Sequence record: NC_047770.1
Reading direction: 5' to 3' (one strand)
DNA from: Escherichia phage ESCO13
Length of the DNA: 64,000 bases
In this document: in pieces, positions 42,042-60,079 of the stretch
How the letters are laid out: every line of letters begins with the position of its first letter
Position numbering within the stretch: the stretch's first letter is position 1
The notes under the pieces: model-generated
The model's database searches: none
Seen by the model: the letters and a program-made list of their open reading frames with translations, nothing else
Told to the model about the DNA's origin: nothing
Position numbers and translations under genes: made by a program

Positions 42042-42048
42042 ACTTCAC

Positions 42049-43669: not shown

Positions 43670-43677
43670 TTTCTCTC

Positions 43678-44241: not shown

Positions 44242-44258
44242 TCTCCCCCTCCGTTATA

Positions 44259-44706: not shown

Positions 44707-45005
44707 TCTACAGCATCATGAGTCCTTGCAAAACGCTCCCACAGCACAGCATCTACTTTAAGAACCATACAAGGATAAATACTGTCGTTGATCATATCAA
44801 TGCTATATTTATCTACATCCTTTTCATCTTCCATAAACAAAGTAGCGTATGCTTCCAAATGTTTACGGGTGTAGTATACGTCCTCTTCGGTAAGACCGAC
44901 AACCAGGTAACTTGCTACAACAACAGTATTATCTTCTTGCATTTTAACTCCCCTTTGGTAGATAGAAACCATGCACTTTATCTCGATAAACAAGACGCAT
45001 ATCAC
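44658..45005 (-). CDS. Hypothetical protein (likely start at ATG about 44942)
   Basis: Internal Met preceded by AGGGGAG, 1 nt after the hydrolase stop. Confidence 0.4.
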   Translation of the reverse strand: MICVLFIEIKCMVSIYQRGVKMQEDNTVVVASYLVVGLTEEDVYYTRKHLEAYATLFMEDEKDVDKYSIDMINDSIYPCMVLKVDAVLWERFARTHDAVECSAVMSQNNILGEIH

Positions 45006-45465: not shown

Positions 45466-45497
45466 ATTTTGCCTCCTTTTTAAGTTAACGAACTTCT

Positions 45498-45526
45498 AGT
45501 ATAACACGATAGAGGCTTTATTGCAA
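45498..45526 (-). promoter_or_regulatory. Sigma70-like promoter candidate on the minus strand (TTGCAA-N17-TATACT)
   Basis: Minus-strand reading gives TTGCAA, 17-nt spacer, TATACT, then RBS and the hydrolase start; a GC hairpin (about 45527-45547) abuts the -35. Confidence 0.45.
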
Positions 45527-45565
45527 GAGGGGGACTTCTCCCCCCTCAAAATCATTTGTTAATTA

Positions 45566-46168
45566 TTATGGACATTCATACCATTCTTTTTTACCACCGA
45601 AGGCCATCACCACATCGCAAATATCCAGACCAGCTTTACCTACACCATATGCTTTCAGCTTCCATTCTCCATCTTCACGAACCAGGGAAGCCACGTGGCA
45701 GATTGTGTTGCCAGCTACTTCAGGAGCCAGGAAGTCAAAATCCAGAATTTCCACATTGCGCTCGGAGTCGAAGATTTTAAGCATACCTTCAGAAGCATGA
45801 CCAAAACGTTTCAGACCTGTATCATCATCAATGGTCAGAACAAAGGCAATCTCTTGTGCATCAGGAGAGATTTTAGCCAGAGTAATATCAATCTGCTCCA
45901 TGCTGCCAGTTCCATCACGAACATCGTCACCAGCGAAGGTAGAACGTTCAGGATCAAACTTGTTAGCATAGCAAACCAGATGACGTGCAGATAGCATTTC
46001 AGGATTGCCAGCGGCATTGTGACGACAAACCAGTGCACTTACATCCAGATCCAGTTTAGAATCAGATTTCCAAGAGAATTCCAGACGCAGTTCTTTCAGA
46101 GCCGGAGCAACTTTCTTCAGGGAAATTTTTTCGCTAGAACCTTTTTTCAGGGAAATTTTATCAGTCAT
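45566..46168 (-). CDS. terD: TerD-domain protein
   Basis: 200 aa; N-terminus MTDKISLKKGSSEKISLKK (TerD-type ISLxKG strand, duplicated); acidic GDDVRDGTG region; size typical of TerD. Confidence 0.65.
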   Translation of the reverse strand: MTDKISLKKGSSEKISLKKVAPALKELRLEFSWKSDSKLDLDVSALVCRHNAAGNPEMLSARHLVCYANKFDPERSTFAGDDVRDGTGSMEQIDITLAKISPDAQEIAFVLTIDDDTGLKRFGHASEGMLKIFDSERNVEILDFDFLAPEVAGNTICHVASLVREDGEWKLKAYGVGKAGLDICDVVMAFGGKKEWYECP

Positions 46169-46183
46169 CTTTTGTCTCCTCTA

Positions 46184-46453
46184 TTATTTAAGTGTAATAC
46201 CAGTTACAGTCAATTCTACTTCCAAAAGCTTAGATGTGTTTTGGATTGATACTAATTGTGCATGATGGTTTAGTTCTACAGCAGAATAATCATTTTCCCC
46301 ATCATCTACTTTTAAATAAACAATGATTTCACTAAGGTCTAAACCATTTTCGTCAAATGCATTTTCATAGACGAAAGTATCTCCTACATCCAAATCTTTA
46401 ATGGTAAGGCATCGTTTATTTACTTTTTGCTCATCAATTTCGAAGTTTAACAC
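46184..46453 (-). CDS. Small acidic protein, paralog A (upstream partner of TerD)
   Basis: 89 aa; paralogous to 47475-47819 (DLDVGDTFVY...LEVELTVTGITLK versus DLDVGATFMY...VEVDLEVTNITLKKEK). Confidence 0.45.
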   Translation of the reverse strand: MLNFEIDEQKVNKRCLTIKDLDVGDTFVYENAFDENGLDLSEIIVYLKVDDGENDYSAVELNHHAQLVSIQNTSKLLEVELTVTGITLK

Positions 46454-46682
46454 TTCTTCCTCCTAATGTTATCTCCGGTTTGTATATACGAAGAATTATA
46501 GCATTTTCATTTTCTTTGTCAACCCATTCTTCATAATCAGGCCATACATGAATCTCTACTCTACTTACAATATCTTCCATTCGCACAGTCCCAATGAAAT
46601 ACTCTTTGAGACTGCGCATAATGAAAGCTTCTCTCTCGCGCCAATAATTTTCTATGACTTGAGAGGCAAGCTCGTCGATCAT
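46434..46682 (-). CDS. Hypothetical protein
   Basis: 82 aa; start overlaps the vWA stop. Confidence 0.4.
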   Translation of the reverse strand: MIDELASQVIENYWREREAFIMRSLKEYFIGTVRMEDIVSRVEIHVWPDYEEWVDKENENAIILRIYKPEITLGGRSVKLRN

Positions 46683-47473
46683 TTTTTAGCACCTACTTTA
46701 ACAACCCACTCTCCGAACTCTTCAGATAAGAGTTTGTCATAAAGCTCTGAATCTGTCAAGTCTAAATCTTTAATGCCAATAAAACCAACATTATCATAAG
46801 CATTTGCCAGTTCTTTCAGGAAGCCAAACTTCTCATTACCAACGCCAACCATGAACCAATAAATAGGTTTATTCTTATTCTCTTCAATAAGACGACGAAC
46901 AGCACTAGGATCACCATTCTCACCATCCGTCTGGAAGAATACAACACCAGGGGTAACGTCAGCACCTGGTTCAGACACAGCTACAACCTTTTCACGCTCT
47001 ACAGATACTGTTTCAGTTTTACCAAGCAGACGATTAAAGAAGCCTTTCTTTGGAGCCTCCTCTTGTACCACTTGTTTAGTGGTAATATATTTGGTAACAG
47101 TGCCAAAATACTCATCGTAGATATCTGCCATTACAGGGGCGTAATTTGTTCCACCTCCGATACGAACATTACGCATACATTTACCAACATAGTCATCGTA
47201 AACGTCTGCTGTTGCTGGAGTAAGCTCTTGGGAACTCGTATTGAAGGCCCACATATCAATTTGTTGATTATCGTCGAACAGCATACCAAAAGGAAGCAGT
47301 TTACCTACAAAATCACTCACTACCCCACTAGAATATAGACCATGCATACTACCAGAAATATCTAGAGCACATGCTACACGAAGAACAATCTTACCTTCAT
47401 TCAGGTTCTTATTCTTTTTCAGAGAGAAAGCAAGGTTTTCTTGACGTTTTTTCAGGCTGATTTTCTCGGACAT
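46679..47473 (-). CDS. von Willebrand factor A domain protein (TerY-like)
   Basis: 264 aa; MIDAS motif DISGSM, GGTNY and TDGENG elements; N-terminus MSEKISLKK resembles the TerD N-terminal strand. Confidence 0.65.
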   Translation of the reverse strand: MSEKISLKKRQENLAFSLKKNKNLNEGKIVLRVACALDISGSMHGLYSSGVVSDFVGKLLPFGMLFDDNQQIDMWAFNTSSQELTPATADVYDDYVGKCMRNVRIGGGTNYAPVMADIYDEYFGTVTKYITTKQVVQEEAPKKGFFNRLLGKTETVSVEREKVVAVSEPGADVTPGVVFFQTDGENGDPSAVRRLIEENKNKPIYWFMVGVGNEKFGFLKELANAYDNVGFIGIKDLDLTDSELYDKLLSEEFGEWVVKVGAKK

Positions 47474-47474
47474 A

Positions 47475-47819
47475 TTATTTCTCCTTCTTAAGTGTAATAT
47501 TGGTAACTTCTAAATCTACTTCCACCATATTTGTATCTGGTGGGATGCAATGAGTATAGCCTCGTTGTGCTAGTGATCCATTAATACAAATCGCACTGTT
47601 TGTGGAATTTTTAATGAACACCAAGTTACGGTAGGTATCCAACCCTGCGTCTTCATAGGCATCATAATACATGAATGTGGCCCCTACGTCAAGATCTTCG
47701 AAAGCAATAGGTAAATCCTGACTTTTTTCTTCTTGAATATTGAATCTAAACACGCATACCTCCTCTACCAATTTTGAAGCCCAAATCGTAAGCTTCCTTA
47801 GTGATCTTTTGTAACTCAC
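47475..47819 (-). CDS. Small acidic protein, paralog B (upstream partner of vWA; GTG start)
   Basis: 114 aa; paralog of 46184-46453; the homologous region starts about 22 residues in. Confidence 0.45.
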   Translation of the reverse strand: MSYKRSLRKLTIWASKLVEEVCVFRFNIQEEKSQDLPIAFEDLDVGATFMYYDAYEDAGLDTYRNLVFIKNSTNSAICINGSLAQRGYTHCIPPDTNMVEVDLEVTNITLKKEK

Positions 47820-48309
47820 TTATAGGAAGTGTTACAAGAGGATCATCTTCTTCAATTTCCATCTTGTCATCTTCTGTTTCAATGAGAGTATTATGCACTT
47901 TGTGATAAGGGTTGTCAACACGTTTAAACTTATTCTTTTCTGTGCTGAAAAAACAATCTGGATCTTCTTCGCCATCACCCCAACCTTGGTTAGGATCTCC
48001 GTCAGATTGTTCTGTAGGGATTTCACCTGTAAAATACTCTTCCAGCACCATAGCGATACCATCCCTTGGATTCGAGGAATGCATTAAATCACAAACCTTA
48101 CCCCAATCCATAGCCCATTCGAACCGTTCACGAACGCCATTTTCATCCTCCTTTCCAGAGAAAACACAACCATAACTATCATAGTTGCCATACATCTCTT
48201 CAATAACAACACCGTCCTTCAAAAGAAAGAGATAACAAGGTGATCCGTCGAAAGAAGTAGAAAGGGCAGCTTTGCCCGATTCTTTGCACAAAAAGCTAAA
48301 ACAACCCAT
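47746..48309 (-). CDS. Hypothetical acidic protein
   Basis: 187 aa ORF, coupled to neighbours. Confidence 0.4.
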   Translation of the reverse strand: MGCFSFLCKESGKAALSTSFDGSPCYLFLLKDGVVIEEMYGNYDSYGCVFSGKEDENGVRERFEWAMDWGKVCDLMHSSNPRDGIAMVLEEYFTGEIPTEQSDGDPNQGWGDGEEDPDCFFSTEKNKFKRVDNPYHKVHNTLIETEDDKMEIEEDDPLVTLPISELQKITKEAYDLGFKIGRGGMRV

Positions 48310-48512
48310 TACAAACCCTCCTTCAGATTATCAAGAGCTACAGTGGTTTCACAAAATTCTCCATAAGCTTTATGATGTTCCAGAAAAGCTTCGGGTCCAC
48401 CCCAATCATTGTCTTGTGTATTCCAGCCATCAATAAAAGCATCTTCAATGATTGTGATCAGTTCTTGTCGGGTTAACTGGATAATATTAGGGTCGTTATC
48501 GTAGTTAAACAT
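48309..48512 (-). CDS. Hypothetical protein
   Basis: 67 aa. Confidence 0.35.
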   Translation of the reverse strand: MFNYDNDPNIIQLTRQELITIIEDAFIDGWNTQDNDWGGPEAFLEHHKAYGEFCETTVALDNLKEGL

Positions 48513-48678
48513 CCTCTTCCTCCTCTAAAATATGGAACCCGTAATTACAATAGTCCTGAAAGGTTTCGTGTGCAAGATCTTCTATATCCTCTTGAGACAT
48601 ATCATCTTCAATTTCGATATCCACAACCTCATTGCATCCACACCAAGCAGTTTCAATATTCACTCGTAATATTTTCAT
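48505..48678 (-). CDS. Small ORF not in the track (about 57 aa), translationally coupled
   Basis: ATG overlaps the upstream stop (TAATG); its stop overlaps the next ATG; protein MKILRVNIETAWCGCNEVVDIEIEDD... Confidence 0.3.
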   Translation of the reverse strand: MKILRVNIETAWCGCNEVVDIEIEDDMSQEDIEDLAHETFQDYCNYGFHILEEEEDV

Positions 48679-48878
48679 TACTCCTCCTCCTCCTCATTGA
48701 AGTCAATATCTGCAAGGAGTTCGAATTTACGGAAGTTACGACAACCTTCATAAATATAACAATCACGACAAACTGCTAGAACACTTGGGGGATATATGCC
48801 TCCCATCGGCGCGAATCGTTTTTCGTCATCATAACGGACACCAATGTCCTCATCAATTATATAGATACGGATTCTCAT
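48678..48878 (-). CDS. Hypothetical Cys-containing acidic protein
   Basis: 66 aa; CRDCYIYEGC; poly-Glu C-terminus. Confidence 0.35.
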   Translation of the reverse strand: MRIRIYIIDEDIGVRYDDEKRFAPMGGIYPPSVLAVCRDCYIYEGCRNFRKFELLADIDFNEEEEE

Positions 48879-49987
48879 TTACCAAGCCCTCGTTTCACAG
48901 CAGCTACCATCCCGTCTTCCAAAGATTGAACTTCATTAATATAATCAACACGAGCAGCACGGGCTTCCGTATTGATGCGGTTAGTTTCTTCCAACATCTT
49001 AACCAAGTTTTCCTGATCGTGACGCAGAGTTTCAATATCCAACACTTGACGGTTAGCCAGTGCTGCTGCTTCGATCTGATTCTGTGTGGCAAGATCGCTA
49101 CCCAGTTTAATTGCCAGGTTAAATTCATCAAGAACGTTATTCTGCGTCTCTGCTGCTTTCATTTGACGTAAGCTCTCGATATACATTGAGAAGTTAGCAG
49201 AGTAAGCAGGAATAACATTATTTACTATGTTACGCGCAGATCGCATTAAGCTTGCAGAAACTTTTTGCATACCTTGTACACGCGGTCCCATTTGGACACA
49301 CAGTAGGCGCAATGCTTTTAAATCTGCAATACGAATCTCCAGAAGATCCAAAGTATCTCGGATCACTTGTCGCTGTTCTACTGCATCTTCTGGAAGAGCA
49401 GCCAAAGCTTGTTCTTCTTTTTCATAGGTTGCTGTTAGAAGCTGCATATCTCGGTTCAAACTTGCAGCATATTGTCCAATAGCTTGATGTAGCTTTTCAA
49501 GATATACCAAGGAATCTTCTTCTTTGCGAATATCCATTTGAAGGTTTTTTACCAACTCTTCAATACGGTTATTAACATTATCAAACTCCCCAAACAGATC
49601 TTCTTTCATACCCATAACTTTTTTAATGAGTTTAGTAATACCCTTGCTTTGTTTAATAGAGTTTGGATCAAGTTGTTTTGCCTGTTTAATCAAAGCTGTG
49701 AGTCGTTCACTCATCTGATCGCCTTGATTACTACGTTGATGTTTTAATACCTCGGCATTCAAGGAACGCAAGGTTGTTCCTGCCTCTGCCCCAATCTCTT
49801 CGATCTCTTGTCGGGTCATAGAAGGCAAAACTGGAACTTCTTGCGGTGCCGCTGGTGCATAAACAGGACTGGCATCTAACACGCTTGGAGCGAATACAGA
49901 TTTACTTGCATCTGTTGTTGCAGCAAATACGCTCATTTCAGGCTTCTTCTGACCGCCAGTAGCTGCTTTTAAAAATGGACTTGTCAT
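48875..49987 (-). CDS. TelA-like (toxic anion resistance family) helical protein
   Basis: 370 aa, helical/coiled-coil throughout; size and composition resemble TelA/YceH-family proteins; supported by the TerD/vWA/TerC context, not by a confirmed motif. Confidence 0.4.
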   Translation of the reverse strand: MTSPFLKAATGGQKKPEMSVFAATTDASKSVFAPSVLDASPVYAPAAPQEVPVLPSMTRQEIEEIGAEAGTTLRSLNAEVLKHQRSNQGDQMSERLTALIKQAKQLDPNSIKQSKGITKLIKKVMGMKEDLFGEFDNVNNRIEELVKNLQMDIRKEEDSLVYLEKLHQAIGQYAASLNRDMQLLTATYEKEEQALAALPEDAVEQRQVIRDTLDLLEIRIADLKALRLLCVQMGPRVQGMQKVSASLMRSARNIVNNVIPAYSANFSMYIESLRQMKAAETQNNVLDEFNLAIKLGSDLATQNQIEAAALANRQVLDIETLRHDQENLVKMLEETNRINTEARAARVDYINEVQSLEDGMVAAVKRGLGK

Positions 49988-50574
49988 TCTTCATTCTCCT
50001 CTTCTGCATCTCTTATATATGGTGAAACACCGTACTCTTTAGCTACTTTAACCCAATCGTCCCATTTATACAACCATAATTTTCCTTCGGTCCCTTCTTT
50101 ATCTGATTTCAACCACATATTAGGTTGCTTACCTGGGTACATGCGATTAGGTTTACGATTATAACCTCTAACACATCTTGTCGCAAACCTATCTACCAGA
50201 ACAAGAACATATTTATATTCGTGGTTCAACGGCTCTTTGGAAGTGGCTTTAGGATTAGCCCCTAACTCTGCTGCCAGTTTTTGCCAATGAGCACCGTGTC
50301 TACTAAACTTACCCATACAACCATCAATAGCATGAGCAATTTCGTGCTTCATTGTATCCACGATCATATCTCTTGTAGAGTTCTTATGCAAGTGCCAATT
50401 TACAACAACAATTTTATCTCGGTAGTTGCACCAACCGAAAGAGTTATTCACTTTGTTTCTAACACAAGCTTTATATCCTGCTTCACGTAACATGTTGTAG
50501 TAAACAGGAAAATCTTCTTTTATTTCCTGCATCACTTCCCACCACAAGAGTTGCAAGTCTCTCTCGGTATACAT
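49984..50574 (-). CDS. SprT-like zinc metallopeptidase domain protein
   Basis: 196 aa; MKHEIAHAIDGCMGKFSRHGAHW (HExxH followed by HGxxW). Confidence 0.55.
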   Translation of the reverse strand: MYTERDLQLLWWEVMQEIKEDFPVYYNMLREAGYKACVRNKVNNSFGWCNYRDKIVVVNWHLHKNSTRDMIVDTMKHEIAHAIDGCMGKFSRHGAHWQKLAAELGANPKATSKEPLNHEYKYVLVLVDRFATRCVRGYNRKPNRMYPGKQPNMWLKSDKEGTEGKLWLYKWDDWVKVAKEYGVSPYIRDAEEENEE

Positions 50575-50577
50575 AAC

Positions 50578-51171
50578 TTACACCTTAAAAGTGAAATGCG
50601 TGGTCGTGGTTTCAAAATCAGGACCAGATAAACGTGCACTGAAATCTGAAATATTTGTAATTAAAAAGCTTTTATGCATACCTAACACAGCTACGCTTTC
50701 AATATCTTCTACTAACATTTCAACCATGTTAGAAACATGGCTGAACGTAGAGTTTTGTTTTTTGATGGTGTAGAAAGAAAGATTCCCACCTGCTGTATAA
50801 GATACCTCTTCAAAATCTTTAATCGTATATTGTGTGCCATCAGTAAAGAAAATGGTAGCTTTATTAGTAGCACGTTTCTTGTTTTTTGGTCCTTTTTTAC
50901 GTTTACTGCGAGTAGGCAAACCGTTTGGGAACACCATAGCTACAAATTCTTCAGCAGAAACCTCCTTACCGAAATCATAACCATAAGAAACAGCGTCTAT
51001 AAACTCGTCATCTTCATTTTTAAAATAATGGAAATAGGGCCAATTTGAAAGATTATCAAGCATCTTATGCTCGTCCACAGCAGAGAATGTATCCCTCAAA
51101 GCGCGTGTGATTTGCAAAGCATTAGGCAACCTTTTAACACCTACGATGGAAGTACGAATAGAAATTGTCAT
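50578..51171 (-). CDS. Hypothetical protein
   Basis: 197 aa; basic central segment; no motif recognised. Confidence 0.4.
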   Translation of the reverse strand: MTISIRTSIVGVKRLPNALQITRALRDTFSAVDEHKMLDNLSNWPYFHYFKNEDDEFIDAVSYGYDFGKEVSAEEFVAMVFPNGLPTRSKRKKGPKNKKRATNKATIFFTDGTQYTIKDFEEVSYTAGGNLSFYTIKKQNSTFSHVSNMVEMLVEDIESVAVLGMHKSFLITNISDFSARLSGPDFETTTTHFTFKV

Positions 51172-51185
51172 TGTTTTTCTCCTTA

Positions 51186-51698
51186 TTAACGTCGCTTGCT
51201 ACGAGATGAACTCTTTTTACTTAAAGGGCTATTGTAAGATTTACGAGTTGTATAGCTACTATTTGTTTTAAAAGTTTGTCTCGGCTTTTCATAAGTTTTT
51301 ATCTCTTGTTTAGGCTTACTATAAAAATTAGTTTTCGGTTTAGGTGTATTATAATGCTTATTAATAATCGTTCTGTTATCGTTATAATCCCCACTGCTAC
51401 GATTACTACCGCCACTCATCATATGCCCTAACAACATACCTGTAGCAAACTCACCAACACCGCTACTACTAGAACCGCCACCATTGTTGATAATAGTTGT
51501 ATCTCCGTCAGATCCTTGTTGAGCGTATTGTTGAGGAGGTTGTTGGTATTGTGCAGGATTTGTTTCATCCTCGCAAGCTGTTAAAAAGATACAACCAATT
51601 AAAATCAGGGCTAGTTTTTTCATATTTGCTTTCCTCGTTTTGGCTATTAATACATCTGTGTTTGAAATCTCCAGAGAAGCAATAAAGTTGCTCTCCAT
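51186..51698 (-). CDS. Lipoprotein, Gly/Ser-rich (probable true start ATG at about 51623)
   Basis: Internal start gives MKKLALILIGCIFLTAC with lipobox LTAC; RBS GAGGA; mature part is Q/G/S-rich then basic. Confidence 0.5.
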   Translation of the reverse strand: MESNFIASLEISNTDVLIAKTRKANMKKLALILIGCIFLTACEDETNPAQYQQPPQQYAQQGSDGDTTIINNGGGSSSSGVGEFATGMLLGHMMSGGSNRSSGDYNDNRTIINKHYNTPKPKTNFYSKPKQEIKTYEKPRQTFKTNSSYTTRKSYNSPLSKKSSSRSKRR

Positions 51699-51806
51699 CT
51701 CGGTATAAACTCACTTTACTGCCGTTGATTACGCTTGTCAATACAAAAATTACAACAAACAACCCTATTGCAAAACAAATATTTTCAAACACAACCAACA
51801 AGTATT

Positions 51807-52157
51807 TCATTTTAAAAATACCTCATCATCAGTTTCATTATCCCAGAAGAACAAGTCCCAACCATTCGGATCATTCCATTTAGCTGCTGGAGAAGTCCAT
51901 ATTTGCTCGATATCAATATTCAAAACTTCACCGTTTCGTTTTGAAACAGCTTTAGTTAATTCCCAACGGGATACAGGCTCCACTTCCCCTGAACCACTCC
52001 CACAACAAGCTACCACATTAGGAGGCAAATTAATTGGATCTTTGGTCACGATCATAACGCTTACCCCAGGGTAAACTTTTGAAAGATAATCTAAAACGTA
52101 ATCCACATCACCAGATAAATCCCAAACAAGTTCTTGAATTTCATCAAAATTACTCAT
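51807..52157 (-). CDS. Hypothetical protein
   Basis: 116 aa; RBS AGGAGAG. Confidence 0.4.
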   Translation of the reverse strand: MSNFDEIQELVWDLSGDVDYVLDYLSKVYPGVSVMIVTKDPINLPPNVVACCGSGSGEVEPVSRWELTKAVSKRNGEVLNIDIEQIWTSPAAKWNDPNGWDLFFWDNETDDEVFLK

Positions 52158-52169
52158 AAGTCTCTCCTA

Positions 52170-52193
52170 TAAAATAGCCTCCCGAAGGAGGCT
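52170..52193 (-). terminator. Rho-independent terminator candidate downstream of terC (minus strand)
   Basis: AGCCTCC-CGAA-GGAGGCT followed on the minus strand by ATTTTAT. Confidence 0.4.
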
Positions 52194-52199
52194 CATTTA

Positions 52200-53174
52200 T
52201 TAAACAGTAGCTTCTTCTTTTTCAGGGAAGATAAAGCTTGCAATAACACCAAGAGATAATGTGCCTAGAACAATCATCAGACTTACGTTAGGGGAAATAT
52301 CATGCGGGAGGAATGACCACTTGGCATGAAGTGTTTCACCGAACGGGTGATACATAAGTTTAGCACCAACAAACACCAGAACCACAGCAACAGCTTTCTC
52401 TAAGTGAACCAGATATTTCACAGCTACACTTAACACAAAGAAAAGTGCACGTAAACCAAGAACAGCCATCAGCATTGCAGAATAAACTAGCAGAGGTTCT
52501 TGTGTCACACCGATCACAGCCGGAACTGAATCAAAAGAGAAGACAATATCTGTAAGCTCAATAACAAACACACAAAGAAGAGCAGGAGTTGCATATTTAA
52601 TACCATTCTTAATGGTGATGAACTTTTCACCATCCAGTGCATTGTGCACAGGCAGAACTTTACCTACTAAACGAACAGCCCAATGTTTAGAGTAATCAAT
52701 ATCCTCTTCTTCGTCACCACCTTTGATGATAGCCACGGCAGACCAAGCTACAATCAAACCGAACAACACTTGGACCGACCAATGAAGGTTAAACAAAGCG
52801 GTCCCTGCTGCAACAAAAATACCTCGGAAGACAATGGCTCCTGCAATCCCCCAAAGTAGAATCTTATGTTGGAGATGTGTGCTCTTAATTCCAAAGCTTG
52901 CAAAAATTGCCATGAACACCATTAGGTTATCTACAGAAAGACTCTTTTCCAACACATAGCCACTTAGGAAAAGCGCGGCAAACTCTTTACCATGTTCTAC
53001 CCAAATGAATGCGTAATACCCTAAAGCTAAAGCAATCCAAAAAACAGACCAAAGCAAAGCAGATTTAATTCCAATTTCTTTATTCTCTTTATGACCAAAG
53101 AAATCGATACCAATAGACAATGCTAAAATACCAACTAAAACAACTACATCAATAATTGGGAAACCGAGTTGCAT
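52200..53174 (-). CDS. terC: TerC-family integral membrane protein
   Basis: 324 aa, multi-pass membrane protein; signature segments EKSLSVDNLMVF and ELTDIVFSFDSVPAVIGVT (the two TerC repeats). Confidence 0.8.
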   Translation of the reverse strand: MQLGFPIIDVVVLVGILALSIGIDFFGHKENKEIGIKSALLWSVFWIALALGYYAFIWVEHGKEFAALFLSGYVLEKSLSVDNLMVFMAIFASFGIKSTHLQHKILLWGIAGAIVFRGIFVAAGTALFNLHWSVQVLFGLIVAWSAVAIIKGGDEEEDIDYSKHWAVRLVGKVLPVHNALDGEKFITIKNGIKYATPALLCVFVIELTDIVFSFDSVPAVIGVTQEPLLVYSAMLMAVLGLRALFFVLSVAVKYLVHLEKAVAVVLVFVGAKLMYHPFGETLHAKWSFLPHDISPNVSLMIVLGTLSLGVIASFIFPEKEEATV

Positions 53175-53253
53175 TCTTTTCTCCTCTCTTTGCGGGGAAC
53201 TATTCCCCGCTTCATGTGATATATCTTACTCTTTTTAAGAACTATGTCAACAC

Positions 53254-53475
53254 TTATTTTGTTGAATGAGAGGAAAAGATTCCTCGTAATACCGCCAAAA
53301 TAAACGAAACACAAACCACGGTCCAGAAGGTTACTGGGACAGTGATATCTGCATGACCCATAACTTCAGCAACATAGTTGTAAGCCAGCAACAGTAACCA
53401 AGCTGGAATCAAACTAAGCATAAAAGCAATAACAAAAAAGCTTACCACTGCAACAATACCTGCAAAAACACCCAT
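53254..53475 (-). CDS. Small membrane protein
   Basis: 73 aa; two to three hydrophobic helices. Confidence 0.4.
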   Translation of the reverse strand: MGVFAGIVAVVSFFVIAFMLSLIPAWLLLLAYNYVAEVMGHADITVPVTFWTVVCVSFILAVLRGIFSSHSTK

Positions 53476-53487
53476 ACTAATCTCCTC

Positions 53488-54027
53488 TTAAAGTTTATAA
53501 ATAGTCACATCGTGACCTGTTTTTACTAAAGTTTCTTCAATCATCACTTGGATGATAGCCCAATTACCTCCGGCATGTCCCGCTCCAATCATAGGTAAAC
53601 CGATCTTACATTTTTGGTCACGGAGAAGCAAATCATTAGCCATAGCTATTAGTGCATCGTAAAGTGCATCATAGTCCAACTGACGACCTTTAGCATTGTA
53701 TCCGTAACGGTATTGCCCGTATAGATTATATACCAAAGGGTCTGATTGTTCGTCTGGCACCCCTAAACTAAAAGAACCTAACTTACTTTGATCACCAGCC
53801 ATTGTGTCTAAATCTGCCGCATATGCATAAGGGAATGCTCGTTTAATTTGCGGAGCAATTCCTGCTCCCATATTACACATACAATTGCAACAATGAGCAA
53901 TAACAGTTACTTCACCTGCTTTAGCGGCATCAATAAGATTACCTGTTTTCATTTTAAGCATTTTTAGCTCCTTATTACAGAATGTGTTGTTTTGTGTAAC
54001 GATCCAAGAATTCAAAGTTTTCAGCAT
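53488..54027 (-). CDS. Macro-domain-like protein (probable start ATG at about 53961)
   Basis: VIAHCCNCMCNMGAGIAPQIKRAF and IGLPMIGAGHAGGNW resemble the macro-domain ADP-ribose-binding signature; internal ATG with RBS AAGGAG avoids overlap with the PRTase. Confidence 0.45.
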   Translation of the reverse strand: MLKTLNSWIVTQNNTFCNKELKMLKMKTGNLIDAAKAGEVTVIAHCCNCMCNMGAGIAPQIKRAFPYAYAADLDTMAGDQSKLGSFSLGVPDEQSDPLVYNLYGQYRYGYNAKGRQLDYDALYDALIAMANDLLLRDQKCKIGLPMIGAGHAGGNWAIIQVMIEETLVKTGHDVTIYKL

Positions 54028-54802
54028 ACTTTGAAATTCGGTTGTAACCTTCTCCCAAACATCCGAAGAAAAGTTGCTCTACATAGTAGTGTGGCAATTG
54101 GCTAAGAATGATTTTGAAGTCTTCGTGATTTTGGCCCATAAGATACTTAATAGGACGAACAAGACACTGTGCATCACGTTCTTCATTAATCATTTTAACA
54201 AACGCTTCTGGTGTATTGATGTAGTTAAAATTCAGTTTAGCTTCAGTATCTGCTTGATTACCTTCATATTTTGCAAAATACAAGAAGTAAACATCATTTT
54301 TAACTTGATTTTCATCAAGAATCTCAATCAGTTTGTCTTCATGAGTTCCGGTGATATTTACATCATCAATGAACACAAGCTTCTTATCACCCCAGAATTC
54401 TTTGTTGCAGTAGAATGTATCCCCATCAATAAGTTTCTTACGACTAGCTTTATCCAAGAAACCATAATCGTTGATATAGCTAACTTTACGATGAATAATA
54501 TCCAGTTCTGCTGAACGACCTTGATCATATTGTGCTTGCAACATATTAAAGTAATTAATAAAATGATCTGTCATCATTGTTGCAGCATTGTGCACATGGT
54601 TATAAGGAGAAGGGATGATAACAAATTGTTCCCCAATATGTTTCATTGCCACTTGAGCAAAAAACTGAAGTGCCAATTCTTTACCCATACGACGCGCAGC
54701 TTGGTTACTACCAAATTTCAATTTTGAATAGTCTTTGATATCAAAAGTAGCAGTTTCCAGGTCATCAAATTTATTTGCAAAAATTTGAGTTTGATTACGC
54801 AT
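53975..54802 (-). CDS. Type I phosphoribosyltransferase-fold protein
   Basis: 275 aa; PRPP-binding-like loop KLVFIDDVNITGTHEDKL. Confidence 0.55.
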   Translation of the reverse strand: MRNQTQIFANKFDDLETATFDIKDYSKLKFGSNQAARRMGKELALQFFAQVAMKHIGEQFVIIPSPYNHVHNAATMMTDHFINYFNMLQAQYDQGRSAELDIIHRKVSYINDYGFLDKASRKKLIDGDTFYCNKEFWGDKKLVFIDDVNITGTHEDKLIEILDENQVKNDVYFLYFAKYEGNQADTEAKLNFNYINTPEAFVKMINEERDAQCLVRPIKYLMGQNHEDFKIILSQLPHYYVEQLFFGCLGEGYNRISKYAENFEFLDRYTKQHIL

Positions 54803-55472
54803 TTACAATTTCTCCTCTTTTAAGTTTCTCTAGTAAATCGTTAGGGTTCTTAATATGACAGAAGTTAATCCCTATGTCAACACATTTACCATCAAATTCT
54901 TCGCTGTCCCCAACATGTAAAATCTCTTCAGCCTTCAAAGGAATGCTTGAATATGTGGCGGTCCTAACAAAGAATCTAGGATCTGGTTTACATAACAGAT
55001 GTTCGTCTGAAAAATGCATAAATTCAAAACAATTCCAACTGTCGAACATACAAGCACGACGCAAAATATCCCCAGATATAAAATTAGTATTGCTTTTAAT
55101 ACTAAGATCATATTTACCAGACAAGTATAGCAAACAAACTGGCAAATCTAAAGCGATATGTGGAGGAAATTTAAGAAACCATTGCTCACACTCAAAACGC
55201 ATTTGTGCAGATTCTACAGGGGTTAAACCTATCTTTCTTCCCAACATATTCCATGCATATGCTACACCTTCTGCACACCCATTTAGTGCAGCATTATCCA
55301 TAATTTCTTTGGCATCTTTATATGCTTCTTTTGCCGCACGTTCAGACATTCTACCATATGTAGCAATAGTGTGCGTACGTGCATCTGCATAGTTTTGATT
55401 GGCAGAAATAAGAGTATTCCATACATCAAAAGAAATATGTTTTATTGTCATACTAGGCCCACCACGCATCAA
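54795..55472 (-). CDS. HAD-superfamily hydrolase-like protein (variant motif I)
   Basis: Motif I-like ISFDVWNTL (Trp where the second Asp is expected); motif III CKPDP; motif IV VGDSEEFD. Confidence 0.45.
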   Translation of the reverse strand: MMRGGPSMTIKHISFDVWNTLISANQNYADARTHTIATYGRMSERAAKEAYKDAKEIMDNAALNGCAEGVAYAWNMLGRKIGLTPVESAQMRFECEQWFLKFPPHIALDLPVCLLYLSGKYDLSIKSNTNFISGDILRRACMFDSWNCFEFMHFSDEHLLCKPDPRFFVRTATYSSIPLKAEEILHVGDSEEFDGKCVDIGINFCHIKNPNDLLEKLKRGEIVNA

Positions 55473-56058
55473 GATTTAAGTTACTGTCTACCACAACTTG
55501 TTCTATGTGGTAGCCTTTTATCTGTATCCCACTGTTCAAGAGCATATCATACGCTTCATTGAAACGCAACTTATCTTCTGCGGAATATAAGCGAGCATTA
55601 TAAAATCGGTAATCAATTTCTTCAGCATTAGAAGAAATACGGAAGAAGTTTGTTTCTACTTCGGGATCACTTGCTGAAGTCTTAATGTGAACTTCTCCAT
55701 AATTTTCTTTACTTAGATCCATGAAAAGAACACAGGCAACATGTTTAAACATTCGTTCCAGTTTGTAACGAACAACATTGAAACCTGCATTCTCAAGTTT
55801 TTCTACACACTGCAACATTAAAGTAGTGTCGAGATCGCTTTGATACTTTGTTAACATACGATCACGTTGAGACTTTGTATCCCGATGTAAATCAATTGTT
55901 GTGCATTTGGCACCAATAATCTTAGCTGCTTTCATCAACTCTTCAGAACTAACGTTAGATAAAGTAAGATGAAAATGGGCTTTCCACACTTTTTTAGCAG
56001 GGACACCAAAAGATTTATCCCCACTATTCGGCATGTTGACTACTACACTATGTTGCAT
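55453..56058 (-). CDS. Hypothetical protein
   Basis: 201 aa; a single HxTx (HLTL) motif only; not confidently assignable. Confidence 0.3.
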   Translation of the reverse strand: MQHSVVVNMPNSGDKSFGVPAKKVWKAHFHLTLSNVSSEELMKAAKIIGAKCTTIDLHRDTKSQRDRMLTKYQSDLDTTLMLQCVEKLENAGFNVVRYKLERMFKHVACVLFMDLSKENYGEVHIKTSASDPEVETNFFRISSNAEEIDYRFYNARLYSAEDKLRFNEAYDMLLNSGIQIKGYHIEQVVVDSNLNLDAWWA

Positions 56059-56073
56059 TACTTATCTCCTCAC

Positions 56074-56298
56074 TTAAAATGGAAGTCTTTGAAGTTCATC
56101 TCCTCCGATATCAAGTAATTTAGCAACATCTCGATCAGAAAGCAACTCTTTTCTTTGTAAAATATCCACAAGGGTTGCAAGAATGTCCTTAACGTCCCGA
56201 TCACTGTTCTTCAAAAGTTCTCCTGCCGTCCCTACCCTATCTCCTACAGCAAAATATGTAACCATAAAACCTCCTACGCTAATCTGATTGCCAACCAC
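56074..56298 (-). CDS. Hypothetical small protein
   Basis: 74 aa; overlaps the nrdG 3' end; true start probably internal. Confidence 0.25.
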   Translation of the reverse strand: MVGNQISVGGFMVTYFAVGDRVGTAGELLKNSDRDVKDILATLVDILQRKELLSDRDVAKLLDIGGDELQRLPF

Positions 56299-56749
56299 TC
56301 GCCGTTTTGGTCCATAATCTTTGATTATCTGACCCTCTGAAAGGTTTTGTGGTTGGATTGTTTATTTCATACTTTCCGTCTACAATAATGTCAACAAGAT
56401 TTTTAATATACAAAGGCACTTCCTCAAAAGTATATCCTGTATACACCATTATATCTTTGCTTGACCCATAAACGTCTCTAACCTTTTCTATAAGGTTTTT
56501 AACATTGTAAATATTCTGCGGATCTAATGGTTCTCCTCCTAAAATTGTTAAACCTTTTACAAACGGTCTTGACAAATCTTTTAAAACTTGCTCTACATTT
56601 TCGTTAGTGAACGGTTTCCCATAAGAATAAGACCAGGCTTTCTGGTTAAAACAGCCACGACAACCGTGGCTACAACCACTAACCCAGAGGGAGCACCTAA
56701 CTCCCTCACCATTAATAAGATCTACAGGTTCATATCCTGCAAAATTCAA
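56279..56749 (-). CDS. nrdG: Anaerobic ribonucleotide reductase activating protein (radical SAM)
   Basis: 156 aa; CSLWVSGCSHGCRGCFN carries the CxxxCxxC radical-SAM cluster motif; overlaps and follows nrdD. Confidence 0.85.
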   Translation of the reverse strand: MNFAGYEPVDLINGEGVRCSLWVSGCSHGCRGCFNQKAWSYSYGKPFTNENVEQVLKDLSRPFVKGLTILGGEPLDPQNIYNVKNLIEKVRDVYGSSKDIMVYTGYTFEEVPLYIKNLVDIIVDGKYEINNPTTKPFRGSDNQRLWTKTASGWQSD

Positions 56750-58560
56750 AGATGTTTCTCCCTTTGCAAAACTTCCTGCATTTTACCTTTGTTATAAGGC
56801 CGTGAATTAGGGGCAGAAAGATACCCTGATACACGTCTAACTACAGAAATAGTTTCTTCTTCATGGTTGCCACAATTAGGACACTCAAACCCTTTAGCCG
56901 TTGCCTTAAATTCTCCATGAAAACCACACTTAAAGCATTGATCCACGGGCTGATTAATACCAAAATAGTGAATATGTTCATAAGCGTAGTCTACTAAAGT
57001 CTCCAAAGCTTCTAAGTTATTCTTTAAGTTTGGTGTTTCGACATAACTTATGTTACCACCATTGCTAATCTGTGCAAAACCTGCTTCATAATCCCATTTT
57101 TCAAAAGGATTTGTTACCAACCATACAGGTTGATGAAAAGAATTAGTAAGATAGTCTCTTTCTACCAGACCTGGATATTTTTCATTTAAAGCTGTTGCAA
57201 ATTTATAGCACAAGGATTCTGCTGGAGTTCCATAAAGACTAAATGCCAACTTAGATCGTTCTTTAAACACAGCACACACATCTTTCATATGTTGCAGAAT
57301 GTTTTTACCTAGTTCCTTTTTATCTTTTTCCTCTGGATAAAGGATTTCCAAAGCTTCGGCAAGACCTACATAACCAATACTAATAGAAGCATAACCACCT
57401 TCAAACAAAGCACCAATTTCATCGTTGGCATTTAAACGCGCTAAAGCCCCTTCCATGAAAAGAATAGGGTTTTCAGATGCTTTGGTATGTCTGATACGGT
57501 TTACACGTAGCATGTGAGCATCGTAGGCTATCTCCATATGTTTATTAAGAAGATCGGTGAAAGATTCTCCTTTACTTCTCGCTTCCGCAGCAATCAGAGG
57601 CAAGTTGATAGAAACTACTCCAAGGTTGAATCGTCCATCATATTTTTCTCCTTGTTCGGTGGCATAGTACGACAAAAAGGAACGACAACCCATACTCGTA
57701 ACGGTACCATCTGCTGATCCCGTAACTTCTTTGTTCAAAGGAACAGAAATAAAATCTGGATAAATACGATCAGCACAACATGCCAAAGCTTGTTGCTTAA
57801 GGTCGTAGTTAGGATCACTAGGTTTCATGTTAACACCTTCTTGTAAAAAGAAAATAACTTTAGGGAATACAGGCGTTACATGATCTTTACCTAGACCGTT
57901 ACTATGCACTTTAAGATAGTTAGCTGTGATCATTCTGCCAAAAACAGAGGTATCCAGACCCATACTGATTGTAATAAAAGGAGATTGTCCATTAACACTC
58001 ATTAAAGTGTTAACCTGATACAAAAGAGTTTGCATAGCGTCATATACATCTTGTTCGGTCATTTCTAGGGCTTCTTTCCTTGCATAACAACCGTAGCGAC
58101 GTTTGGTTATCTCCATGTTTTTAAGGAAACTGGCTTCAACATAAGGACTAAGACCTTTATCAATGTGCGCACACGTCTGACCTCCATACTGACTGGAGGC
58201 AACAGCTTGGATGATTTGAGTTAGCACTGTAGTAGCTACTCCAATAGATTTTGGTTTTTCTATCTGTGCAGCACCGATCTTAAAACCATTCTCTAACATA
58301 TCTTGATAATTAACAAGACAACAGTTTGTAAGAGGAGAGAGCAGATAATCCAAGTCGTGAATATGTCCAAAACCTTCTGTATGCCATTCTGACAAGTTTT
58401 TTGGCAGTATCTGTGTCATTGCCATATGTTTGCTTAAAATCCCCGCCAAGAGATCCCTGTGCGTGTTAACAAGGTGGGAAGGTTTGTTTGCATTCTCTCT
58501 AGTGTATGTTTCTGAAGTGCGATCTAAAAAAGAAAAAACATCTTGGTACAAATCTTTCAT
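56746..58560 (-). CDS. nrdD: Anaerobic ribonucleoside-triphosphate reductase (class III)
   Basis: 604 aa; C-terminal zinc ribbon CFKCG...CPNCG and glycyl-radical motif RRVSGYL. Confidence 0.9.
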   Translation of the reverse strand: MKDLYQDVFSFLDRTSETYTRENANKPSHLVNTHRDLLAGILSKHMAMTQILPKNLSEWHTEGFGHIHDLDYLLSPLTNCCLVNYQDMLENGFKIGAAQIEKPKSIGVATTVLTQIIQAVASSQYGGQTCAHIDKGLSPYVEASFLKNMEITKRRYGCYARKEALEMTEQDVYDAMQTLLYQVNTLMSVNGQSPFITISMGLDTSVFGRMITANYLKVHSNGLGKDHVTPVFPKVIFFLQEGVNMKPSDPNYDLKQQALACCADRIYPDFISVPLNKEVTGSADGTVTSMGCRSFLSYYATEQGEKYDGRFNLGVVSINLPLIAAEARSKGESFTDLLNKHMEIAYDAHMLRVNRIRHTKASENPILFMEGALARLNANDEIGALFEGGYASISIGYVGLAEALEILYPEEKDKKELGKNILQHMKDVCAVFKERSKLAFSLYGTPAESLCYKFATALNEKYPGLVERDYLTNSFHQPVWLVTNPFEKWDYEAGFAQISNGGNISYVETPNLKNNLEALETLVDYAYEHIHYFGINQPVDQCFKCGFHGEFKATAKGFECPNCGNHEEETISVVRRVSGYLSAPNSRPYNKGKMQEVLQREKHL

Positions 58561-58628
58561 TATTAATCCTTATTTTGTGAGTAGAACTATTATTCTACCT
58601 CTTTCAACCGAAAAAAGCTTTGAGGGAA

Positions 58629-58662
58629 ATCAAAAAAGGCGCAAAGTGCGCCTTTAAGTTTT
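58629..58662 (-). terminator. Rho-independent terminator upstream of nrdD (minus strand)
   Basis: AAAGGCGC-ACTTT-GCGCCTTT followed on the minus strand by TTTTGATTT. Confidence 0.5.
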
Positions 58663-58663
58663 A

Positions 58664-60079
58664 TCATTTGGAGAGGAATTGTCTTCCCATGATCTTACCG
58701 TTCTTCACAGCGGTCCCATCGTGTCCATTGTAATCCCAGGTTCCATCGATATTACGCAAGAAGCTATCACGAACAGTATAGGCTTTACCGTTCTCTACTT
58801 TACTTTCTTCCACAATGATTGCCATAACAAGCTTATTTTCAATTTCGGTAGTAACCGATTCTTTGATACCCTCTGTAACTTCACGATCATATTGGATATA
58901 AACTCGCTCCTCGGTTACTTGCACGTCTACCACATTTTTAAATGTGTAGGTCTGTTGCGTAGTGTAGAGGACACGAACGACACTCTTCTTACCTACCGGA
59001 GGCTTCTTACGAGGCTTACGGTAACGTGGTTTAGGGTTGTTAGTTGGAAGCCAACCAACAATATCCCGATCATATCCAACATGACCCCAAGTGAAATGCG
59101 TAGCCGATCCACTATCCGTAGTTCCGTCACGAAAGAGAACTTCTACGTGACCACCACAAGGGCGGTGTCCACCATTATTATAGTTGTATTTTGCCGTGCG
59201 CGGGAGAATGAAGTATTCTTTAATCGCCCACTCTTCCAGATTGTCGATATTCCAAGTGAATACTGTTCCCTTAGCAACATCTGTTTGACCATTGTTGAAG
59301 CGAACCTGCACGAAATCTTCCGAAGGCATAACACCTGTGTTCGGCAGATATTCAAATGCAGTATCTTCCGCTACAAACTGTTCTTCCTCTTGCTCCTCAA
59401 TACTTGGCACAGGCGCAGCTTCATCGTATTTCGCAGCAAACATATTTTTAAATTCTTGAGCCGTGACTTCTACAAGGCCGCGATCACCAGTAGCAGCAGA
59501 GTGTGGGCGTGGTAAATCCCCAACTTCAATATGCATTGCATCTAAGCCTGCTTGACGATCAAAGAAGATAACCTTGCGGAATTGTTTATCTTTATATTGT
59601 GGCAGTTCATACATACTTGGATCGATTGTCTTCAAACGTTCAGCATCTTCTGGCTTCCAGAAGCTTTTACCTGTTGCAAATCTAAAGTCTACCAGTAGTT
59701 TAACAACATCTCCTAATGATAAACTATCTGCATCTACGAAAACGTCTTCGATTCCCAATAACCCTGATTTCTTAAGAATCAAATCTAACATGTAACCTCC
59801 TGTGGTTTGTTCTGCGTCTGGATAACGATCAACACTGGTGCTGGTTACACCGTTTATTTCACCAGTGGAGGCATTGTAGGAAATATATGGGAAGGTCATA
59901 TCGTTCATTGCAAAATCACCTGAACAGGTTGGATCATCTTCTCCCTCCCAGCCATACACCTTCACAATACCTTCACACAATTTGTCATACACACCAGCGC
60001 GACGTGCTGCTTCAGCAACTTCCTGTTTACGGGCAAATTTATTAATCATGATTCCTCCTGTTAATTGCCATAGATGCAC
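58664..60079 (-). CDS. Hypothetical protein (GTG start)
   Basis: 471 aa; no motif recognised by eye. Confidence 0.4.
   Translation of the reverse strand: MHLWQLTGGIMINKFARKQEVAEAARRAGVYDKLCEGIVKVYGWEGEDDPTCSGDFAMNDMTFPYISYNASTGEINGVTSTSVDRYPDAEQTTGGYMLDLILKKSGLLGIEDVFVDADSLSLGDVVKLLVDFRFATGKSFWKPEDAERLKTIDPSMYELPQYKDKQFRKVIFFDRQAGLDAMHIEVGDLPRPHSAATGDRGLVEVTAQEFKNMFAAKYDEAAPVPSIEEQEEEQFVAEDTAFEYLPNTGVMPSEDFVQVRFNNGQTDVAKGTVFTWNIDNLEEWAIKEYFILPRTAKYNYNNGGHRPCGGHVEVLFRDGTTDSGSATHFTWGHVGYDRDIVGWLPTNNPKPRYRKPRKKPPVGKKSVVRVLYTTQQTYTFKNVVDVQVTEERVYIQYDREVTEGIKESVTTEIENKLVMAIIVEESKVENGKAYTVRDSFLRNIDGTWDYNGHDGTAVKNGKIMGRQFLSK

Follow-up and report, generated by a model that had tools for sequence, protein, structure and literature searches.

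A Ter-linked HAD–PRTase_3 gene pair, a macrodomain and a candidate enzyme family in a probable transcription unit of Escherichia phage ESCO13

Ter systems have been linked for decades to resistance to tellurite, colicins and phages, and we know of no chemistry established for them. In 2012 Anantharaman, Iyer and Aravind reportedly described a Ter biosynthetic module and predicted a 'nucleoside-like metabolite' for these systems; the classical bacterial form of the module is said to consist of one or more ATP-grasp amidoligases and a TIM-barrel C-C lyase, a phosphoribosyltransferase (PRTase) of the PRTase_1, PRTase_2 or PRTase_3 family, and a HAD-fold phosphoesterase. A PRTase and a HAD phosphatase, ToyH and ToyI, also form a pair in a nucleoside-antibiotic pathway, that of toyocamycin biosynthesis. 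Here we analyse a 64,000-nucleotide stretch of Escherichia phage ESCO13 (NC_047770.1; hereafter the window), in which four neighbouring genes encode a macrodomain protein, a PRTase, a HAD-like protein and a protein of 201 amino acids that we call p201. The initial annotation of this DNA had proposed that the four genes might form one counter-defence module concerned with ADP-ribose or nicotinamide adenine dinucleotide (NAD). We favour, with a probability of about 0.6, a composite of three independent elements, namely a HAD–PRTase cassette belonging to the Ter system, the macrodomain and p201, within one probable transcription unit.

Ter-linked PRTase and HAD genes of phages have been reported computationally by Iyer et al. 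2021 (PMC7824862). Macrodomains are present in 41% of myoviruses (PMC9503650), and two macrodomain proteins offer functional precedents: SCO6735, which strips ADP-ribose from thymidine in single-stranded DNA and rescues cells from DarT, with Gln85 being essential (PMC9411070), and AdfM (PhiKZ gp104), a DarG2-like macrodomain of a phage that counters DarTG2 (PMC13309987). Phages are also equipped with NAD+ reconstitution pathways, NARP1, NARP2 and NARP3, the last of which is the PnuC and NadR pair. In the window, the four open reading frames (ORFs) were confirmed at the positions first assigned to them; all lie on the minus strand, are closely spaced and are conserved. They are not chance ORFs, because divergent homologues of all four exist in other phages, down to 21–37% identity.

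The initial description of the PRTase as a type I enzyme holds. The protein belongs to PF15610 (PRTase_3, 'PRTase ComF-like'; E 6e-42, 144 bits against a cut-off of 28.7 bits), which is its sole significant Pfam family, and the best 120 of its 408 homologues all fall into PF15610. Its loop for binding phosphoribosyl pyrophosphate (PRPP), VFIDDVNITGTHE, is intact; the pattern DD[VI]xITG[TA]H[EQ] is shared by all 25 distinct sequences compared, and an IPSPYN..NAAT motif in the N-terminal part is found family-wide. Neither an NCBIfam equivalog nor, by sequence, a solved structure matched the protein. The alternative that it is a PRPP-synthetase-like enzyme, left open in the initial annotation, or a relative of Adps of the NARP pathways, was rejected: neither Pribosyltran_N nor Pribosyl_synth gave a Pfam match at E ≤ 0.1, and PRTase_3 alone was significant. 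A pattern search of genome contigs recovered the PRTase at two loci only, of which one belongs to a copy of this phage and one to a contig, assembled from a metagenome, whose origin is uncertain. Literature searches on PF15610, on ComF-like PRTases in phages and on Phapecoctavirus macrodomains gave nothing relevant. As a side observation, five records assigned to Campylobacter jejuni phages (MG065689, Campylobacter phage A110a, and four more) carry a PRTase and a TerD that match those of E. coli Justusliebigvirus. The A110a PRTase is 64.7% identical to the query, the same value as for Justusliebigvirus, and the five records are probably contaminant or mislabelled genomes.

The HAD-like assignment of the neighbouring gene was upheld by NCBIfam HAD-IA models (E down to 1.5e-8) and by the structure 2om6 (E 3.6e-5), while its Pfam score stays below the cut-off. 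Motifs II–IV of the superfamily are present (SN[TS]NF, KP and GDxxxxD). Motif I reads FDVWNT, with the nucleophilic Asp in place and Trp at the D+2 position, and the motif FDVWNTL also occurs in the uncharacterised entry 2om6. In 25 of 25 distinct family members motif I follows the pattern D-[VIFAL]-[WY]-x-T, so that D+2 is always Trp or Tyr, and the canonical DxDx[TV] motif with its general acid/base at D+2 is absent from the family. The usual 'phosphatase' or 'hydrolase' label of this HAD family may be wrong.

The HAD gene lies directly upstream of the PRTase gene in 27 of 27 distinct places examined. These comprise Justusliebigvirus, Xanthomonas phage XaC1, Rhizobium phage TM21B, Brevundimonas phage Gurke, 18 IMG/VR loci, three further metagenomic contigs, and Sinorhizobium and Rhizobium plasmids, with jumbo phages and Logan contigs among them. 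HAD and PRTase_3 form a cassette of two genes that is obligate in phages and Rhizobium plasmids alike, and the two are translationally coupled. In ESCO13 the stop of HAD and the start of the PRTase gene overlap over 8 nt, ATGCGTAA (54802-54795), with AGAGGAG upstream. The initial annotation had extended translational coupling to the macrodomain gene; the 53-nt overlap between the longest macrodomain ORF and the PRTase gene is probably a 13-nt spacer. The true start of the macrodomain gene is most likely M23 of its longest ORF, because GenBank relatives are annotated in this way and homology begins there; ATG at 53961 follows the PRTase stop TAA (53977-53975) and a TAAGGAG sequence.

The cassette is physically linked to Ter genes. 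In the window, TerC lies 0.8 kb from the pair, TelA 4 kb, vWA-TerF 6.5 kb and TerD 7.8 kb, all on the same strand. In a profile census of loci, six divergent viral contigs (58–350 kb, with PRTases 32–48% identical to the query) carried the pair inside strings of Ter genes within 10 kb. On two of these contigs (L016, L019) TerD starts 20–40 nt past the PRTase gene; the order is TelA-HAD-PRTase-vWA on a third (L020) and TelA-HAD-PRTase on a fourth (L022); TerC, TerD and vWA lie upstream of the pair on the fifth (L023), and TerC and TerD on the sixth (L027). TerD was found in 147 of 50,697 phage records (0.3%) and the PRTase in 155, and the two taxon lists are near-identical, with 11 Rhizobium phages as the exception. 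An independent phage, Acinetobacter phage ME3, probably carries p201, the PRTase and TerD. Some GenBank records name TerD 'hypothetical' or even 'integral membrane protein'.

The best-supported interpretation of these gene neighbourhoods is that the HAD–PRTase pair would act as the biosynthetic arm of a Ter system that the phage itself carries. The initial annotation had suggested that the locus could belong to a Ter-associated metabolite pathway; for the PRTase and the HAD this suggestion has the best support. With the Ter biosynthetic module, as reported for phages by Iyer et al. 2021 (PMC7824862), the locus shares a PRTase of the Ter-linked PRTase_3 family, an adjacent HAD partner and linkage to TerC, TerD, TelA and vWA-TerF, an association that recurs in divergent large phages. 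The locus differs in lacking the ATP-grasp amidoligase and the TIM-barrel C-C lyase, in the missing D+2 Asp of the HAD, in the spread of its Ter genes over ~10 kb among unrelated genes, and in belonging to a 150-kb myophage and not to a jumbo phage; the pair is also found without nearby Ter genes. Compared by logic and not by sequence, ToyH/ToyI would be similar in joining a base to PRPP and then dephosphorylating the product to a nucleoside, but here no other pathway genes are present and the HAD has no general-acid Asp.

Several observations weigh against the placement of the pair in a Ter pathway. On three further phage contigs and at several census loci, no Ter gene was detected within 10 kb of HAD–PRTase, and the copies on Rhizobium plasmids have no annotated Ter neighbours; because of such loci the link to Ter genes has to be called frequent, and not obligatory, at a distance of 10 kb. 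No ATP-grasp amidoligase or TIM-barrel C-C lyase was found among 18 proteins scanned at 42986-60079, including every strand-consistent ORF of at least 250 amino acids in that interval. The compared lineages are not wholly independent of one another. Finally, a simple nucleotide phosphatase or phosphomonoesterase activity of the HAD is doubtful, because its D+2 general-acid position is always occupied by Trp or Tyr.

The loci without nearby Ter genes would also suit an explanation in which the HAD and the PRTase are an ordinary nucleotide-salvage pair, recycling a normal base for the synthesis of phage DNA or RNA and lying near Ter genes by synteny only. Neighbours with roles in nucleotide metabolism agree with this: nrdD and nrdG in ESCO13, and elsewhere PurA, RNA ligases, MazG, NT5C, Nudix and tRNA nucleotidyltransferase genes. 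We nevertheless consider salvage unlikely. A strictly coupled partner of the phosphatase type would undo it, and the PRTase falls into none of the housekeeping salvage families, in line with the lack of equivalog and structural matches. In addition, the pair lies inside the Ter strings of the six divergent contigs, on several of them abutting TerD, TelA or vWA-TerF, far above the background frequency of TerD among phages. Under the interpretation of the pair as a biosynthetic arm of the Ter system, the PRTase would join a base to PRPP, giving a ribonucleotide-like product, and the HAD would then process this product, or a phosphoanhydride by-product, to yield a nucleoside-like compound tied to the phage Ter proteins. 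Roles that have been proposed for Ter in the phage are the superinfection exclusion of rival phages, or the remodelling of membranes and of stress responses.

The macrodomain protein was recognised as macro-like in the initial annotation and is confirmed as such. Its Pfam score is marginal (22.8 bits against a 22-bit cut-off), and comparison with solved macrodomains gave E 1e-12 for SCO6735 (5e3b), 9e-7 for 5m31 and 3.5e-6 for TARG1. Among solved structures, the best matches are SCO6735, BT1257, the Thermus DarG macrodomain and human TARG1. Judged from its sequence, the protein is a member of the ALC1-like class, of the type represented by SCO6735, BT1257 and T4 Tk.4. It contains the equivalents of His24 and Asn27 (AHCCN; N26), an MGAG loop and the Gly-rich phosphate loop IGAGHAGGNW, so that the features of the ADP-ribose pocket of the ALC1-like fold (GxG loop, Asn and Gly-rich phosphate loop) are all recognisable at the level of sequence. 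In the alignment column that holds Lys80 of DarG, Lys84 of TARG1 and Gln85 of SCO6735, Gln is found in the ESCO13 protein, its Bas62 orthologue, T4 Tk.4 and BT1257, and Lys in PhiKZ AdfM. The catalytic Lys of DarG and TARG1 is thus replaced by Gln. The protein ends with the macrodomain and has no C-terminal DarT-binding domain of the DarG2 kind; the NCBIfam DarG model is matched at positions 2-147 of 338 only, with 35.5 bits against a cut-off of 250 bits. The Bas62 macrodomain protein, 244 amino acids in total, has an N-terminal extension of ~90 residues.

With SCO6735, BT1257 and T4 Tk.4 the ESCO13 protein shares the Gln at the position of Gln85, the AH(V/C)CN motif with the Asn27 equivalent, the IG(C/A)GxAGGxW loop, and the stand-alone architecture of ~155 residues. 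It differs from SCO6735 in having Ala in place of Lys34, as TARG1 does, and the identity is only 27–33%. AdfM, a phage protein, is likewise a stand-alone macrodomain and belongs to the same broad class, with the same proposed role of removing ADP-ribose from DNA. However, AdfM has Lys at the catalytic position, BLASTP aligns the two proteins over 22 residues only (E 0.012), and no phage nucleus is involved here. By analogy with SCO6735, the macrodomain would act on its own as an ADP-ribosyl hydrolase. Its most likely function would be to detach ADP-ribose from DNA thymidine, countering DarT2, or from protein, and the best-precedented substrate would be DarT2-modified thymidine in replicating phage DNA. 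A role as an anti-DarT2 factor is plausible by this comparison. The proposal in the initial annotation that the protein might reverse ADP-ribosylation is therefore credible, given its active-site residues of the SCO6735 type and the ability of SCO6735 to reverse the action of DarT (PMC9411070).

Relatives of the macrodomain were found by tblastn in 2,982 phage records, T4 Tk.4 included. A macrodomain gene lies directly beside HAD–PRTase only in Stephanstirmvirinae, which amounts to one event of descent. On two divergent contigs macrodomain genes lie 6–15 kb from the PRTase gene, no more than expected for a gene so common.

The fourth protein, p201, gave no match in Pfam, in NCBIfam or, by sequence, in the PDB. 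An exhaustive profile search yielded a family of 260 cluster representatives. H30, K51, T53, D66, R97, K99, E101, E122, H124, S142, N144, N154, R156, E186, D191, D197 and W200 are invariant in the family, and H28 and T32 are nearly so. The invariant polar residues fall on alternating positions of predicted strands and form an enzyme-like constellation. An AlphaFold2 (AF2) model (pLDDT 82, from a shallow alignment) has the order beta-alpha-beta-beta-alpha-beta followed by beta-beta-beta-alpha-beta, corresponding to two tandem ferredoxin-like halves. Searched against BFVD, the model matched uncharacterised proteins only, from phages and from giant viruses, the phage matches being from Rheinheimera phage Barba, Aeromonas phage LAh_8, Acinetobacter phage ME3 and Sinorhizobium phage phiM12.

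The single HxTx motif noted in the initial annotation is present (H30-L-T32-L), and a comparison with 2H phosphoesterases had been suggested there. p201 resembles this superfamily (LigT, CPDase, Acb1) in the one H-x-T-x motif, a second conserved His, a similar size and a two-lobed predicted architecture. Two H-x-[TS]-x motifs are not found, however: the second invariant His lies in E122-x-H124-x-K126 (E-x-H-x-[KRN] in the family), so that the second motif is H-x-K/R instead of H-x-T/S. The first strand carries the first His motif, and the predicted fold is not the bilobed one of LigT. The assignment of p201 to the 2H phosphoesterases was therefore rejected, by motifs and by predicted fold.

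A different label is offered by PADLOC, whose models PDLC02277 and PDLC02279, named 'AbiEi', match p201 over nearly its full length (E 4.7e-13) and all ten family members tested, with E values down to 3e-23. These matches would fit an AbiEi-type antitoxin mimic that neutralises abortive infection by AbiE, a type IV toxin-antitoxin system. We hold this to be very improbable. The label was not corroborated: no Pfam AbiEi family matches p201 at E ≤ 0.1, and the p201 family profile found no solved AbiEi structure. The predicted fold starts beta-alpha-beta, is ferredoxin-like and lacks a winged helix; an AbiEii-type neighbour was present in none of 14 p201 contexts examined; and the invariant polar residues, together with the fusions to Nudix and HD domains, point to an enzyme. 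The label looks misplaced, or covers an unrelated family. A bacterial-type member of the family found nothing when searched against plasmids by tblastn.

Fusions of the p201 family to Nudix (confirmed in two cases, with ~11 more clusters of the same length and layout), HD_4 and HTH domains were observed. In one context (L044, 8001-9021 and 12545-12976) a p201 relative overlaps an Acb1 gene, to which it is translationally coupled, and NADAR lies at a distance of 4 kb. In another (L041, 2729-9125) an HD_4-fused relative lies directly past an NAD kinase gene, with NAMPT and NUDIX upstream. A third relative lies near NUDIX and NAMPT (L052), and relatives at three loci adjoin AAA_28 (NadR-type) or AAA_33 kinases (L007, L053, L054). 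Several other contexts in phages are uninformative, and one cellular-looking context places the gene with a Ham1-type ITPase on one side and Cu-oxidase_4 on the other. These neighbourhoods, few in number, suggest by guilt by association that the substrate of p201 is probably a nucleotide or an NAD-derived, pyridine-nucleotide small molecule. The theme of NAD and counter-defence is suggested for the p201 family only, and solely by the genes adjoining it in other phages.

Whether the four genes act together can be weighed on these data. A single counter-defence module would require the macrodomain and p201 to erase marks or signals while the PRTase and the HAD rebuild or recycle an NAD-type metabolite. 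This idea draws on the tight packing and the probable common transcript of the genes, on the DarG- and SCO6735-like character of the macrodomain, and on the p201 relatives beside Acb1 and NADAR, beside NAD kinase, NAMPT and NUDIX, and adjoining NadR-type or AAA_33 kinases. Rhizobium phage TM21B has a gene for an NMN adenylyltransferase/Nudix protein two genes past HAD–PRTase, and a divergent 153-kb contig carries p201, a macrodomain, TerC and HAD–PRTase inside ~22 kb. Its probability nevertheless appears low to us. The PRTase is a ComF-like PRTase_3, neither Nampt- nor Namat-like nor PRPP-synthetase-like; Pfam recognised no Nampt- or Namat-type protein in the locus, and tblastn with NAMPT, NUDIX, NAD-kinase and AAA_28 seeds gave no match in the whole window. 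The macrodomain stands beside HAD–PRTase in one subfamily only, and genes of its kind abound in myoviruses. The neighbours of HAD–PRTase that are strongest and recur most often are Ter genes and not NAD genes. Finally, p201 occurs without the other three genes in Rheinheimera phages and several other phages. The likeness to NARP1, NARP2 and NARP3 extends to the general idea of a phage phosphoribosyl-transfer step near counter-defence genes, but the PRTase family differs, and no homologue of Adps, Namat/Nampt, Nmnat, PnuC or NadR is present in the locus or the window.

Taken together, the four genes do not act like a single module: the HAD–PRTase pair is obligate, and the macrodomain and p201 occur separately elsewhere. 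On the other side of this argument, all four run in one orientation, are tightly packed and probably belong to one transcript, and they could function jointly; p201 and HAD–PRTase also occur on one contig, ~14–15 kb apart, in no fewer than two more divergent phages. Among the IMG/VR loci of p201, 5 of 9 are on contigs that also carry HAD–PRTase, three of them Phapecoctavirus-like and two divergent. A more far-reaching proposal would combine several of the above elements. In it, p201 would be a new phage and giant-virus enzyme family (two ferredoxin-like halves in tandem, with the motifs H-x-H-x-T and E-x-H-x-K) that destroys or recycles an immune signal or a by-product derived from a nucleotide or from NAD, a new enzymatic counter-defence alongside the macrodomain, and HAD(Trp)–PRTase_3 would make a non-canonical ribosylated base as the ligand of a phage Ter membrane complex. 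We regard this combination as speculative and doubtful. We retain the composite of three elements.

The window belongs to a Phapecoctavirus (Stephanstirmvirinae; a phAPEC8/ESCO5-like E. coli myophage), and in megablast its interval 52000-56400 matches phAPEC8, ESCO5 and AV125 over the full length with 99–99.8% identity. Tail and baseplate genes occupy the plus strand from position 1 to ~31,800, and the remainder consists of minus-strand genes of replication and nucleotide metabolism; no tRNA genes were found in the window. The features of the locus are collected in Table 1. The genes nrdD-nrdG-orf63-p201-HAD-PRTase-macro-mem73-terC probably form one transcription unit, as judged from consensus scans only. 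Terminator-like hairpins lie on both sides of it, at 58655-58635 upstream of nrdD and at 52193-52176 after terC; promoter-like sites in the window do not exceed the count in shuffled sequence. The TAG stop of p201 (55455-55453) lies 1 nt before the HAD ATG (55451), and the longest HAD ORF begins at TTG, 55472.

Table 1. Genes and sequence features of the ESCO13 locus and of the dispersed Ter set (window coordinates).
Feature	Coordinates	Strand	Evidence or remark
nrdD (anaerobic ribonucleotide reductase) and nrdG (activase)	56279..58560 (nrdD 56746-58560; nrdG 56279-56749)	-	First genes of the probable transcription unit
orf63, ORF of 63 aa between nrdG and p201 (phrog_17780)	56074..56265	-	No Pfam match
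p201, 201 aa, uncharacterised viral family of candidate enzymes (phrog_22504)	55453..56058	-	H-x-H-x-T and E-x-H motifs
HAD-superfamily hydrolase, 218 aa from ATG	54795..55451	-	HAD-IA models, motifs; PRTase partner
Type I PRTase, PRTase_3 (ComF-like), 275 aa	53975..54802	-	PF15610, E 6e-42
Macrodomain protein, 157 aa from likely start M23 (longest ORF 53488-54027)	53488..53961	-	SCO6735/BT1257/T4 Tk.4 type
mem73, predicted membrane protein, 73 aa	53254..53475	-	Kept between macrodomain gene and terC across Stephanstirmvirinae (L001, L002, L010-L014)
Promoter-like TTGACA-16-TAAGAT upstream of terC	53223..53250	-	Consensus match only
Perfect 8-bp inverted repeat GCGGGGAA-TAG-TTCCCCGC	53192-53210	-	Between promoter-like site and terC ribosome-binding site; without T-run
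TerC/Alx-family integral membrane protein, 324 aa	52200..53174	-	PF03741 E 3e-40; TIGR03718 E 4.5e-95, above cut-off
Intrinsic-terminator-like hairpin directly 3' of terC	52176..52193	-	Hairpin scan
SprT-like metallopeptidase-domain protein between telA and terC	49984..50574	-	PF10263 E 4e-9
TelA-family protein, 370 aa	48875..49987	-	PF05816 E 3e-33
vWA-TerF-like protein, 264 aa	46679..47473	-	PF10138 E 1.6e-37
TerD-domain protein, 200 aa	45566..46168	-	PF02342 E 3e-28

The Ter set (TerD, vWA-TerF-like, TelA and TerC/Alx) is dispersed over 45566-53174 and interleaved with the SprT-like gene and several unknown ORFs. Bacterial relatives of TerC/Alx are riboswitch-controlled. The region upstream of the phage TerC/Alx gene, including the inverted repeat, has no match in Rfam, and a riboswitch was rejected on this ground; the repeat could be a regulatory or processing hairpin of the gene.

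Several observations concern neighbouring genes and related phages. The place between nrdG and HAD is occupied by p201 in Phapecoctavirus, and in Justusliebigvirus Bas62 by a 386-amino-acid AAA ATPase and two small ORFs (L002, 2785-3945). The possibility that this place in Bas62 holds the validated NADAR protein AdfN proved wrong, the gene there being the AAA ATPase. A 471-amino-acid ORF upstream of nrdD (58664-60079) has no Pfam match, and its ESCO5 orthologue is named 'ribonucleotide reductase' in RefSeq. At ~41000-44250 (for example 42986-43669) lies a run of four genes that the ESCO5 annotation describes as glycosyltransferases (gp211-214). One of them has a weak match, below the cut-off, to a TET-associated glycosyltransferase (E 1.3e-3). 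The run adjoins a Dam-like methyltransferase and a DNA polymerase, and may serve in the glycosylation of DNA or of the surface. Outside the window, ESCO5 encodes a Sir2-family protein and an RNA ligase (NC_047776.2, 17518-18318 and 49556-50488), further genes linked to NAD or ADP-ribose; the substrate of the macrodomain could lie inside the phage, for example among RNA-repair by-products.

The components of the locus belong to kinds already described, namely phage Ter systems with a PRTase and a HAD, macrodomains of the Tk.4/SCO6735 type and phage erasers directed against DarT; nothing in it is categorically new, and several of its genes had already been labelled by GenBank annotators. For the most part, the locus at present exemplifies things previously described computationally. 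Absent from the searchable literature are the strict pairing of HAD(Trp/Tyr) with PRTase_3, the split between Gln-type and Lys-type (AdfM) phage macrodomains, and the p201 family. The occurrence of the HAD–PRTase_3 pair in easily grown E. coli phages, both phAPEC8/ESCO5-like phages and the phi92-like BASEL phages Bas60-62, offers a tractable route to the predicted nucleoside-like metabolite, and in the same phages one can ask of what use a Ter system is to a virus. T4 Tk.4 and ~3,000 phage records share the Gln-type macrodomain; if it is true that such proteins reverse DarT2, the principle seen in AdfM would extend to a very large group of phages. The p201 family would represent an unexplored family of enzymes, found from phages to giant viruses, whose neighbours suggest a role in nucleotide-based conflict.

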